Shown piece after piece: positions 13,064 through 14,761 of a stretch of DNA of 40,000 nt. The notes beneath the pieces are model-generated. The model was not told where the DNA came from. It did no database searches and saw only the letters and a program-made list of their open reading frames with translations. A program made the position numbers and the translations under genes. Position 1 is the first letter of the stretch. Each line of letters opens with the position of its first letter. The DNA is from Pseudomonadota bacterium (GTDB taxonomy: Bacteria; Pseudomonadota; Gammaproteobacteria; Pseudomonadales; Halieaceae). The DNA is taken from contig JBCDIW010000002.1 in NCBI GenBank assembly GCA_038748515.1, positions 382,296 to 422,295 of the forward strand, written 5' to 3'.

Positions 13064-13462
13064 ATGAATGAGTCTAATCTTGTAGAGGTAGTGATCTACA
13101 TCCGGGAGCAAATCGCGTTCCTGTGGAATTTTTATGTCACTGTGAGTGCGGTACTAATCGGGTGGGTGTTTTCTTCTAAGATGCAATGGTCGAGAGAGGT
13201 AGGCCTTATTGTACGAGGGCTGTTCGTGGTGTTTGCCTCAATCAATGGAATAGCGCTTTACAACGAGTACTCTCTAATGCACTTGGCAATAGATGATCTC
13301 CGGTCTCGCTCAGATGCAACGAGTGGCTTTGTCTACGAGTTTTCTCGTTCGGGCGGTCTTGGGCCGTCTGTTGCGGCGCTTACCCATCTCGTGGGTGATA
13401 TCGTCATTCTGTCACTTATCAATTTGCGGCTCCGCAGTGTTCTCCCACCTAGATCCACATAA
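13064..13462 (+). CDS. Cassette 10: integral membrane protein, unknown function
   Basis: 132 aa with 3-4 hydrophobic helices. The stop lies in the ATAAC inverse core of its attC. Confidence 0.5.
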   Translation: MNESNLVEVVIYIREQIAFLWNFYVTVSAVLIGWVFSSKMQWSREVGLIVRGLFVVFASINGIALYNEYSLMHLAIDDLRSRSDATSGFVYEFSRSGGLGPSVAALTHLVGDIVILSLINLRLRSVLPPRST

Positions 13463-13466
13463 CAAG

Positions 13467-14663
13467 CGACTGTGATCCCAGTTCAACCCAGTAGCTCTAC
13501 TCTTTAAGCCATGTGCCACTCCTTCTGGTCCCTGACCATGGCGTTCAATATGCCCATCATCTTTCGCATGCACACGGTGATGGCAACTTTCTTGTGCTTA
13601 CCCTGATCGATCAGCTTGTTGTAGAACGCCTTCATCACAGGATTGTGCTGAATAGCGCTGAGCATGGCCATGTAGAGCACGGTGCGGATGGGAGCCCGTC
13701 CCCCGCGAATGCGCCGCTTCCCTCGCAGTGATCCACTGTCCCGGTTGAACGGCGCTAGCCCTGTTAACGCGGCGATCTGCTTGTGGCTGAGCGACCCGAG
13801 TTCGGGAAGCTCGCCGAGCAGTGTGTAGGCCACACCGTCACCGATCCCAGGGACAGAGATCAACAACGCGTGAGTTTTCTGCCATTGCTCTACGCGGGCT
13901 ACGGCCTTGTCGAGCTTCTGCTCGACCCAGGCAATCTCCTTCTCTAAGAACTTGATGGCCCTGCGATGTGAAGCCACAAGGCTTGGAGTGGCCTTGTGCT
14001 GTCGATTCAGTTCCTGGGTACGCTGCTGCATGAGCTGACGCTTTCTCGCCAGTAAGTCTCTGACGTTCTGAACGTTTTCATCCGGGATCGGCCTGGGCCG
14101 GATAGAGAGCGCCTTTCCGAACCGAGCGATGAGAAAGGCATCCAATTTGTCGGTTTTAGCAAGCACACCTTCGGCTTTGGCGAACTGACGTACCTGCATG
14201 GGCTGAACGAGGCAGACTGGTAGACCGTGGCTGGCGCAGGCGGCGACCAGGGCTCTCTCATAGCCGCCAGTGGCCTCGACAATGATCCGTTGAGGTTTGA
14301 GACGCACGAGGCGACTGACCCACTCCTGAATCTCCGGTAGTGAATTTGCGATGATGAGGTGTTCTTCTTGTTCGAGGATGGCGATGTCGAGGACGTCCTT
14401 GCCCACATCGATGCCGATATTCAGTTCGGTTTTTCTGCTGTTAGCGGTCGTATTTGTACGCATAACTCACCCTTGCTACATTCGGGCTCGAGGCCCTTTC
14501 GACTGTTCGAGTTAAACCACGGAATCGGCGGGGAGCTCTTGCTTGTTAACGGGCTCTAGAAATCGGCGCCAGTCAGGTTTCGAGCTTCCCCACCGAGAAC
14601 CTGCGGCTACAGGTTCGGGCCTCACTTTAATCGCTCACGAGGTATCGAAAGAGTGATATTCCG
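13467..14663 (-). mobile_element. IS110-family insertion sequence inserted in attC 10 (ends ambiguous by up to 5 bp because ACAAG occurs at both junctions)
   Basis: About 1.2 kb of foreign sequence interrupts an otherwise intact attC. It has a single DEDD-type transposase ORF, no obvious terminal inverted repeats, a 205-bp non-coding end upstream of the transposase and a 37-bp end downstream. Confidence 0.8.
13504..14463 (-). CDS. IS110-family (DEDD) transposase
   Basis: 319 aa. N-terminal [14 protein letters not shown] ... [11 protein letters not shown] ... [14 protein letters not shown], and C-terminal [21 protein letters not shown] ... [20 protein letters not shown], are hallmark IS110/IS1111 motifs. 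Confidence 0.9.
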
Positions 14664-14761
14664 ATCATACAAGTCAAGGCTGCAGGGGCGCTTCGCGCCG
14701 GGACGTCCGCTACGCTGCCGCCCAGCTTGACGCGATAGATGTGCTTGTCCGAGGTTGCGAT

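Follow-up and report, generated by a model that had tools for sequence, protein, structure and literature searches.

Does an insertion sequence (IS) that interrupts an integron recombination site carry, in its own non-coding end, an RNA guide programmed for such sites? The question is raised by an IS110-family element in a 40,000-nucleotide (nt) stretch of contig JBCDIW010000002.1 from a Halieaceae bacterium (hereafter the window), where the element splits an attC site of a chromosomal integron. Sequence comparisons indicate that this is very probably an IS110-group, IS621-like IS whose left end encodes a bridge RNA, its expression and activity being predictions. On balance we also favour a wider, joint claim: that the element belongs to a large IS621-like lineage, undescribed in the literature searched, which is specialized on cassette arrays and reaches Vibrio (43% identity); that its address is split between a fixed 7-8-nt right guide (TAAC plus AAG) and a fast-evolving left guide that adapts to the spacer and L'' of the host and tolerates mismatches or a skipped base; and that attC targeting guided by RNA originated here a second time, independently.

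The insertion and its upstream non-coding end

The studied region lies in a chromosomal integron with an integrase gene, intI (7264-8274, minus strand; TIGR02249, integron integrase, 436 bits), and, to the right of it, a cassette array. The repeated attC sites of this array have the common sequence CATAACAAGTCAAGGCTGCAAGGGCGCTTCGCGCC...GCTTGAAGCGTTA, and intact copies read CATAACAAGTCAAGG. One attC is split. Its left part, up to 13466, reads ...ACATAACAAG (with ATAACAAG at 13459-13466), and it resumes at 14674 as TCAAGGCTGCAGGGGC, the letters at 14669-14679 being ACAAGTCAAGG. Removal of 13467-14673 in silico restores an attC of the main family of the array (D1), CATAACAAGTCAAGGCTGCAGGGGCGCTTCGCGCC..., and the insertion falls at an exact position in the R''-L'' (inverse-core) end, where a preliminary description of this DNA had placed it. 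Read around the core, the attC target of this copy is TGCAGCCTTGA-CT-TGTTATGTGG; on the IS-sense (minus) strand the left remnant reads CT-TGTTATGT, in which the right target comes after the core CT (13466-13465). A 2-bp CT core is present at each junction. Because it lies within a CTTGT that both junctions share, this sequence by itself leaves the boundary ambiguous over 5 nt; comparison across the family puts the exchange at CT, as the right flanks of three loci (L010, L041 and L042) differ after CT and the left end keeps TGT.

The predicted transposase matches PF01548 and PF02371 (E = 9e-27 and 1e-18, both above cut-off) and NCBIfam NF033542, 'IS110 family RNA-guided transposase' (220 bits versus a cut-off of 140). 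The catalytic-type residues D19, E63, D105, D108 and S243 are invariant among 27 homologues, and the only relatives in the PDB are ISCro4 (E = 2e-29) and IS621 (E = 7e-28). A long non-coding end upstream of the gene and a short one downstream (208 versus 37 nt here) form a layout that recurs in 53 homologues. The element has neither a terminal inverted repeat at its ends nor a long, 7-17-bp sub-terminal one. A short sub-terminal repeat does occur: in 15 of 41 end pairs, positions 7-9 of the left end and -11 to -9 of the right end show full complementarity (triplets ATC/GAT, ATT/AAT and GTT/AAC).

We aligned 53 distinct upstream ends and assessed their pairing with RNAalifold and by explicit pair counting. 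The ends share a fold that consists of a 5' hairpin, a 13-bp stem around an internal loop and an inner hairpin, and a second module that ends at the start codon. Across the alignment 92% of cells are paired, with compensatory changes in 26-29 pairs; none of 500 shuffles reached the observed pairing, and sliding the 3' partners lowered it to 30-38%. The window RNA has a minimum free energy (MFE) of -73 kcal/mol (z = -3.24). The preliminary description had suggested that the long upstream end may encode a guide RNA. A covariance model built on the family (R1) aligns the left end of the window element over its full length (14459-14671, 204.9 bits). The conserved fold and its covarying pairs support the view that the left end encodes a conserved, structured RNA that is bridge-RNA-like.

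Within the target-binding module, the outer stem pairs CGGUGGGG-A-AGCUC (14595-14582) with GAGCU-CCCCGCCG (14538-14526), and compensatory changes are found in 11 of its 13 pairs and in 5 of the 6 pairs of the inner hairpin. The GAGC/GCTC closing stem and the GAACCTG/CAGGTTC and GGGC/GCCC hairpins, earlier seen in the single copy, are all present, each with covariation in the 53 homologues. Two GCCGATT repeats noted alongside them also exist (14567-14561 and 14529-14523, minus strand), with no conserved counterpart among the homologues; they fall in two different helices of freely varying sequence, and we rejected a functional role for them as a coincidence of the window copy. The pairing of GAGGCCC with GGGCCUC spans the whole target module and either competes with, or forms a pseudoknot with, the donor hairpin GGGC/GCCC.

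A full-length reading frame with all invariant residues, and a match of both ends, both loops and all helices to the family consensus at the full-length model score, speak for an intact element. We hold only tentatively the possibility that the window copy is an inactive relic of a family in which the RNA and the guides are real, a state that is compatible with our interpretation: the element is present as a single copy, its exact protein has been recorded from a single contig, its left guide fits the flank imperfectly, and the decayed R' box GATAGAT suggests an old insertion.

Table 1 Features of the IS and of the interrupted attC site (positions in the window)
Feature	Positions	Strand	Details
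IS body	13467-14671	-	1,205 bp; additional CT core copy at 14673-14672
Right end	13467-13503	-	37 nt, downstream of gene; ends ...GATCACAGTCG; candidate -35 TTGAAC at 13486-13481
Transposase / bridge recombinase gene	13504-14463	-	319 amino acids (aa); PF01548 + PF02371
Left end, non-coding, predicted bridge RNA	14464-14671	-	208 nt upstream of gene; candidate -10 TATGAT at 14669-14664
GAGGCCC	14617-14623	-	complementary to GGGCCUC (14496-14490); 3 pairs with compensatory changes; present in MFE fold
5' hairpin (helix 1)	14597-14616	-	GAACCUG/CAGGUUC; 6 of 7 pairs with compensatory changes
Target-binding module	14526-14595	-	outer stem, internal loop, inner hairpin (~14569-14551)
Left target guide candidate	14571-14579	-	AACCUGACU, 5' side of target loop
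Right target guide, supported by comparison	14542-14550	-	GUUAACAAG, 3' side of first internal loop; position of the IS621 right target guide
Donor-binding module, predicted	14464-14513	-	stem AACUC (14513-14509) / GAGUU (14468-14464); covariation in helices 4-6
Left remnant of split attC	13457-13466	+	R'' box ACATAAC (13457-13463) plus AAG
Remainder of split attC	14674-14740	+	TCAAGGCTGCAGGGGC...; 66% identity to reference copy

Proposed right and left target guides

The segment GUUAACAAG (plus-strand letters CTTGTTAAC) contains the 7-nt match that the preliminary description had read as a target guide. Its UAACAAG complements the IS-sense CT+TGTTA, a sequence made up of the last four bases of R'' (TAAC) and AAG. 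On its own, one 7-nt match within about 200 nt lacks significance, as by our own arithmetic about 0.3 would be expected for any 7-mer of a 20-nt target on either strand. What raises this match above chance is the comparison across the family, in which an invariant motif meets a constant flank and the two co-vary. GUUAACAAG is nearly invariant among the 53 non-coding ends, and 52 of 54 unique insertion sites have the right flank CTTGTTA; base counts over the 54 sites are C, T, T (51), G, T, T (52) and A (52), then G29/T14/A8/C3, G34/A12 and Y37.

Invariance alone cannot prove pairing, and the support comes from rare variants. Guide AACGAG faces flank CTCGTT in L010, AACCAG faces CTGGTT in L041 and L042, GCUAACAAG faces CTTGTTAG in L009, L015 and L054, and GAUAACAAG faces CTTGTTAT in L078, L073 and an element of Vibrio fortis (L080); each of these changes is compensated. 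Alignment column 147 and flank position 3 are complementary in a fraction of 0.97 of sites, with 0.84 expected. Because the left ends of L010 and L041/L042 are still TGTATG, the changed base belongs to the target and the exchange takes place at, or just after, CT. Position, near-invariance and compensating flank variants together support the earlier suggestion that GUUAACAAG acts as a target guide.

The 5' side of the same loop (14581-14570 in the window) is the most variable part of the RNA. A scan of alignment columns against flank positions in 50 sites gave a single clean diagonal, on which columns 110-117 correspond to left-flank positions -10 to -3. These 8 bases adjoin the CT core and belong to the spacer and L'' region of attC. 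The observed match along these positions was 0.84, 0.66, 0.66, 0.68, 0.60, 0.52, 0.46 and 0.40, versus 0.72, 0.37, 0.34, 0.34, 0.29, 0.30, 0.28 and 0.28 expected from base composition, and registers shifted by one were flat. Permuting the flanks among loci gave 3.98 +/- 0.14 matches of 9 against the 5.24 observed, and none of 5,000 permutations was as high. In the window copy the natural left target is CCTTGACT, the skipped-base form of which is CCTGACT. A general bulge at target position -5 was considered and ruled out, as L009, L036 and L052 match contiguously. The candidate left target guide (14579-14571) had been missed in the preliminary description, as had the candidate donor guides described below.

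Two other explanations of the 7-nt match bear on these data. One is that the match is a coincidence, the protein or the structure of attC picking the target and the RNA serving, for example, as a 5' untranslated region that regulates translation of the transposase. The donor-loop 3' strand overlaps the ribosome-binding region, which makes a regulatory role plausible, and neither the lone 7-mer nor the imperfect left-guide matches would dispel the idea. Yet variation in the guide is compensated in the flank in several lineages independently, the variable segment of the loop follows the left flank in a single register, CTTGTTA is kept at sites without attC features (L006, L007, L010, L018 and L019) and homologous enzymes are experimentally RNA-guided (PMC11208160, PMC11187229), all of which leaves coincidence very unlikely.

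Equally improbable, in our judgement, is that GUUAACAAG is a donor- or core-binding segment whose invariance reflects that of the IS ends. This would fit its complementarity to the circle-junction G+CTTGT (6 nt), an invariance like that of the donor guides and the presence of CTTGT in donor and target alike. It does not fit L010 and L041/L042, in which the guide changes follow the right flank (CTCGTT and CTGGTT) and the left end keeps TGTATG, nor the fact that guide position 142 tracks flank position 8, which is outside any donor sequence. In addition, the segment that follows the left flank lies in the same loop as this guide, and ACAGUCG, the sequence of the right-end terminus, is in a separate loop.

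Targets of the family and the predicted donor junction

Protein relatives of the transposase at 60-77% identity number in the thousands and are mostly metagenomic; there are 190 genome hits. A scan of one genome per species yielded 78 loci, mainly from Cellvibrionales, Microbulbifer, Alcanivorax, Thiodiazotropha and related Gammaproteobacteria. In nearly all family loci, the left end starts with TGTATG after a (C/N)T dinucleotide and the right end finishes with ...CACAGTCG and then CT; nearly all homologue right ends finish with (A/C)TCACAGTCG. In the plasmid collection the lineage has no member above 46% identity, and the ISfinder protein set that accompanies PMC11187229 lacks the family-specific peptide motifs; the nearest named ISs found are ISHne3 and ISMno7, at about 44% identity. 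The Vibrio fortis element is on a plasmid (NZ_AP025489.1, 303679-303883), and its transposase is 43% identical to that of the window. It carries the same RNA (105 bits by the family model), the guide GAUAACAAG and the right flank CTTGTTATG, and adjoins small cassette-like genes. The RNA and the attC-type guide that it shares indicate that the attC-type address is older than the Cellvibrionales lineage.

Some loci have unusual ends. In L030 (2765-2800) a right-end-like TCACCACAGTCG-CT precedes the left end and no right end follows the gene; a tandem dimer was ruled out there, as no second copy lies upstream. The right flanks of L004 and L026 start with TGTAT(G/T), which is left-end-like. All three look like donor-junction-like remnants or insertions into donor-like sites.

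For the window insertion the target is attC, and several features of other family sites point the same way. GTTA is followed by RRY, completing the integron core GTTRRRY, in 21 of 52 sites (6.5 expected), which goes well beyond the bases that the guide specifies, and left-flank positions -11 and -10 (Y and T) are conserved, giving the CTTGA/TCAAG motif that is typical of L''. An R' partner with a hairpin stem was detected at p <= 0.05 in 13 of 42 rebuilt sites, where about 2 were expected, and many more look canonical by eye; target repeats in the same orientation occur within 3 kb in 13 of 44 loci. We detected attC by constrained hairpin scoring against shuffles, and the flanks hold 131-141 attC-like hairpins versus 38 in shuffles, a 3.5-fold excess. 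Shuffles were the only control for this count, because attC is near-palindromic and scores on both strands, making the opposite strand unusable. Folding of whole sites against shuffles had little power.

The insertions that keep CTTGTTA without attC features, listed above, fit recognition by sequence rather than by folded structure. Thus attC sites account for many of the family's targets, though not for all.

In the donor-binding module, the candidate left donor guide ACAGUCG (14506-14500) repeats, in 7 of 7 positions, the 7 nt with which the right end finishes. It is followed by the hairpin GGGC/GCCC at 14496-14484 and by the candidate right donor guide AAUGUAGCAAGG (14482-14471), which overlaps the ribosome-binding region. 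The left end's CT+TGTA finds its complement, with one bulged base, in the UA(G)CAAG of AAUGUAGCAAGG, an arrangement that recalls the discontiguous right-donor pairing described for IS621 (PMC11208160). We infer that this second loop pairs with the donor.

When the right end, core and left end are joined (RE-CT-LE), the rebuilt junction contains TTGAAC, an 18-nt spacer and TATGAT, a sigma-70-type promoter. Such a promoter is found in 28 of 49 rebuilt RE-CT-LE junctions versus 2 of 49 integrated left flanks; the junction-promoter arrangement has been described for the IS110 family (PMC11187229). By analogy with IS621, the element would excise as a circle that joins RE-CT-LE, with the predicted junction ...GATCACAGTCG-CT-TGTATGATCGG, and the promoter so created (with the -35 TTGAAC supplied by the right end and the -10 TATGAT by the left) would drive the bridge RNA and the transposase. 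The RNA, predicted to be about 190 nt long and to run from the 5' hairpin through the target loop to a donor loop ending at the transposase start codon, would then base-pair with target and donor on both strands, and strand exchange at the CT core would be carried out by the DEDD/serine recombinase.

Several observations weigh against a bridge RNA that addresses attC through two guides. No relevant Rfam 15 family was found in the whole window at gathering scores or in 13300-14900 at E <= 10, a null that is uninformative in itself because nothing in Rfam 15 matched the region. On the IS621 locus, the family model found nothing with default filters and, with filters off, gave a weak match to the donor loop as its best hit there (338-396, 4.5 bits, E = 0.13); R1 does not recognize the target loop of IS621. 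The right guide AACCAG of L027 faces CTTGTT and is uncompensated. Left-guide matches are imperfect throughout the family (mean 5.2 of 9) and reach only 4-5 of 8 in genomes with multiple copies of one element. For AACCUGACU of the window copy to fit the left flank CCT(T)GACT, one target T has to be skipped; matches number 4 of 8 in the family register and 7 of 8 with the skipped base (9 nt counting the core). Donor guides and donor ends are both invariant, and covariation cannot probe their pairing. Finally, no sigma-70-like promoter is recognizable in the integrated window copy.

For the integron itself, the insertion parts R'' from L'' and has therefore probably disabled the attC and locked both neighbouring cassettes together. 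The R' box of the split site is degenerate (GATAGAT at 14734-14740, where relatives have GTTAGGC), and there are other changes, such as CCCAGCTTGACGCG versus CCCCAGCTTGAAGCG; the site may have decayed in this way once the IS had disabled it. The cassette at 12414-12958, which lies directly upstream of the one with the split attC, holds a toxin-antitoxin-like two-gene pair, of which the first gene encodes 94 aa with a sub-threshold YafQ-like toxin match (23.7 bits versus a cut-off of 30) and the second an HTH_3 protein of 86 aa. Adjoining intI is a gene for a DNA polymerase III alpha-family protein of 1,040 aa (4120-7242, minus strand), which, judged by its length, may be DnaE2-like. A four-unit tandem array of 13-nt units with the consensus CCCAACCTCAGTG occurs at 25596-25660.

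Relation to known RNA-guided elements

In IS110-type elements the long non-coding end that encodes the guide RNA lies upstream of the gene, whereas IS1111-type elements have it downstream, together with long sub-terminal inverted repeats (PMC11187229, PMC11208160). For IS621, Durrant et al. (2024) described a bridge RNA in the left end and RNA-guided activity (PMC11208160; PDB entries for IS621/ISCro4, 8wt6 and 9t56). The window element resembles IS621/ISCro4 in its two-domain transposase (DEDD plus C-terminal domain; 319 aa here versus 326 aa), in the predicted module order of an RNA encoded upstream of the gene (a 5' hairpin, then a target loop with the left guide on its 5' and the right guide on its 3' side, then a donor loop), and in its CT core, the 3-nt inverted repeat flanking the donor and the predicted circle-junction promoter. 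The IS621 copy that we fetched ends ...AACAGTAT-CT-TGTATTATCC and the window element ...CACAGTCG-CT-TGTATGATCG. Reduced to ACAGTAT-CT-TGTATTA in IS621 and ACAGTCG-CT-TGTATGA here, these share the form ACAGTnn-CT-TGTATnA, and from this likeness we read the donor ends and the CT core as homologous. The right donor guide region has ..GCAAGG at the same place in both RNAs.

Protein identity to IS621 is only 31%. The right guide of IS621 has 4 nt, whereas that of the window lineage has 7-8 nt and is fixed across the lineage; the left guide of IS621 includes the core, whereas in most lineage members it spans the 8 nt that precede the core. IS621 naturally targets ATCAGGCCTAC, the window lineage integron attC. 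ISHne3 and ISMno7 belong with the window element to one clade of IS110-group transposases of about 310-320 aa, and the family model finds the ISMno7 left end at full length (31.8 bits, E = 1e-7). ISMno7 keeps the donor-loop motifs but has a target loop without UAACAAG, hence another target; the attC-directed guide is therefore a feature of a sub-lineage.

The IS1111 elements that target attC reportedly comprise ISKpn4, ISPst6, ISPa21 and ISPa25 (Tetu & Holmes 2008; Post & Hall 2009). Of these, ISKpn4, ISPst6 and ISPa25 are known attC-targeting elements of IS1111 type, and any two IS1111-attC members share at least 46% identity (PMC11187229). Siddiquee et al. (2024) showed that attC-matching seekRNAs co-purify with the ISKpn4 and ISPst6 transposases (PMC11187229), and the natural example of an attC-programmed guide that the preliminary description had proposed is thus not new. 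That description had also implied a link to the IS1111-attC subgroup, which proved wrong, as the element has the IS110-group layout and a transposase far closer to IS621 than to ISKpn4. That the element is itself a member of this group with a seekRNA downstream of its gene is extremely improbable, since the shared kind of target (the R''-L'' end of attC), the shared orientation relative to cassettes and an ISKpn4 motif complementary to its flank are outweighed by a transposase 31% identical to IS621 over 311 aa (E = 9e-33) versus 23% to ISKpn4 over 174 aa (E = 1e-4), by a long non-coding region upstream and the lack of a long sub-terminal inverted repeat, by a protein outside the IS1111 range of 330-350 aa (PMC11187229) and by guides ordered left then right as in IS110-type RNAs.

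The likeness between the two groups lies in the target. Both insert at the R''-L'' end of attC in a fixed orientation and interrupt cassette arrays, and in both the guide RNA includes UAACAA(N), which reads the end of the R'' box. They differ in that the IS1111-attC RNA lies downstream of the gene with reversed guide order and long sub-terminal inverted repeats, and in habitat, which is clinical plasmids and Pseudomonas for IS1111-attC elements and marine or environmental Gammaproteobacteria for the window lineage. We took the IS1111-attC insertion position from one ISKpn4 copy, which lies between ...CGGCTTGAA and ...TTGTTAGATG; attC end and orientation are as in the window, and the position is about 6 nt more distant from TAAC. 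In this copy, about 260 nt of non-coding DNA downstream of the gene contain GAUAACAAUC, complementary to the flank ATTGTTA. The family model also weakly aligns an ISKpn4 hairpin (L079:2006-2053, 7.1 bits, E = 0.67) followed by CCGAUAACAAUC, the UAACAAU of which complements ATTGTTA; its likeness to CCGUUAACAAG of the window could stem from convergence or from a common origin of the target loop. The common position and orientation of attC insertion is shared behaviour, not shared ancestry.

Group IIC-attC introns offer a more distant parallel. They are mobile elements that reportedly home to cassette attC sites by RNA-DNA pairing (PMC3001079); they differ as retroelements with a ribozyme and a reverse transcriptase, with another chemistry and another insertion position.

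The mechanism has been described before, as have attC-programmed guides in the sister group; none of our findings changes that mechanism. Only the IS1111 group is named as attC-targeting in the literature searched, which is an incomplete set, and an IS621-like lineage that targets attC with a fixed right guide and a variable left guide appears to be unreported. In marine and environmental Gammaproteobacteria, the lineage turns up repeatedly in or beside attC-like arrays of their chromosomal integrons, where each insertion parts R'' from the rest of its attC and should presumably freeze the neighbouring cassettes. Its 54 natural sites, with one fixed and one variable guide, constitute a data set on the tolerance of IS621-like left guides to mismatches and bulges. 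It seems that each of the two branches of the IS110 family has evolved RNA-guided attC targeting, with guides directed at the same few conserved bases: both lineages read the R'' TAACAA, with RNAs at opposite ends of the element and in reversed guide order.

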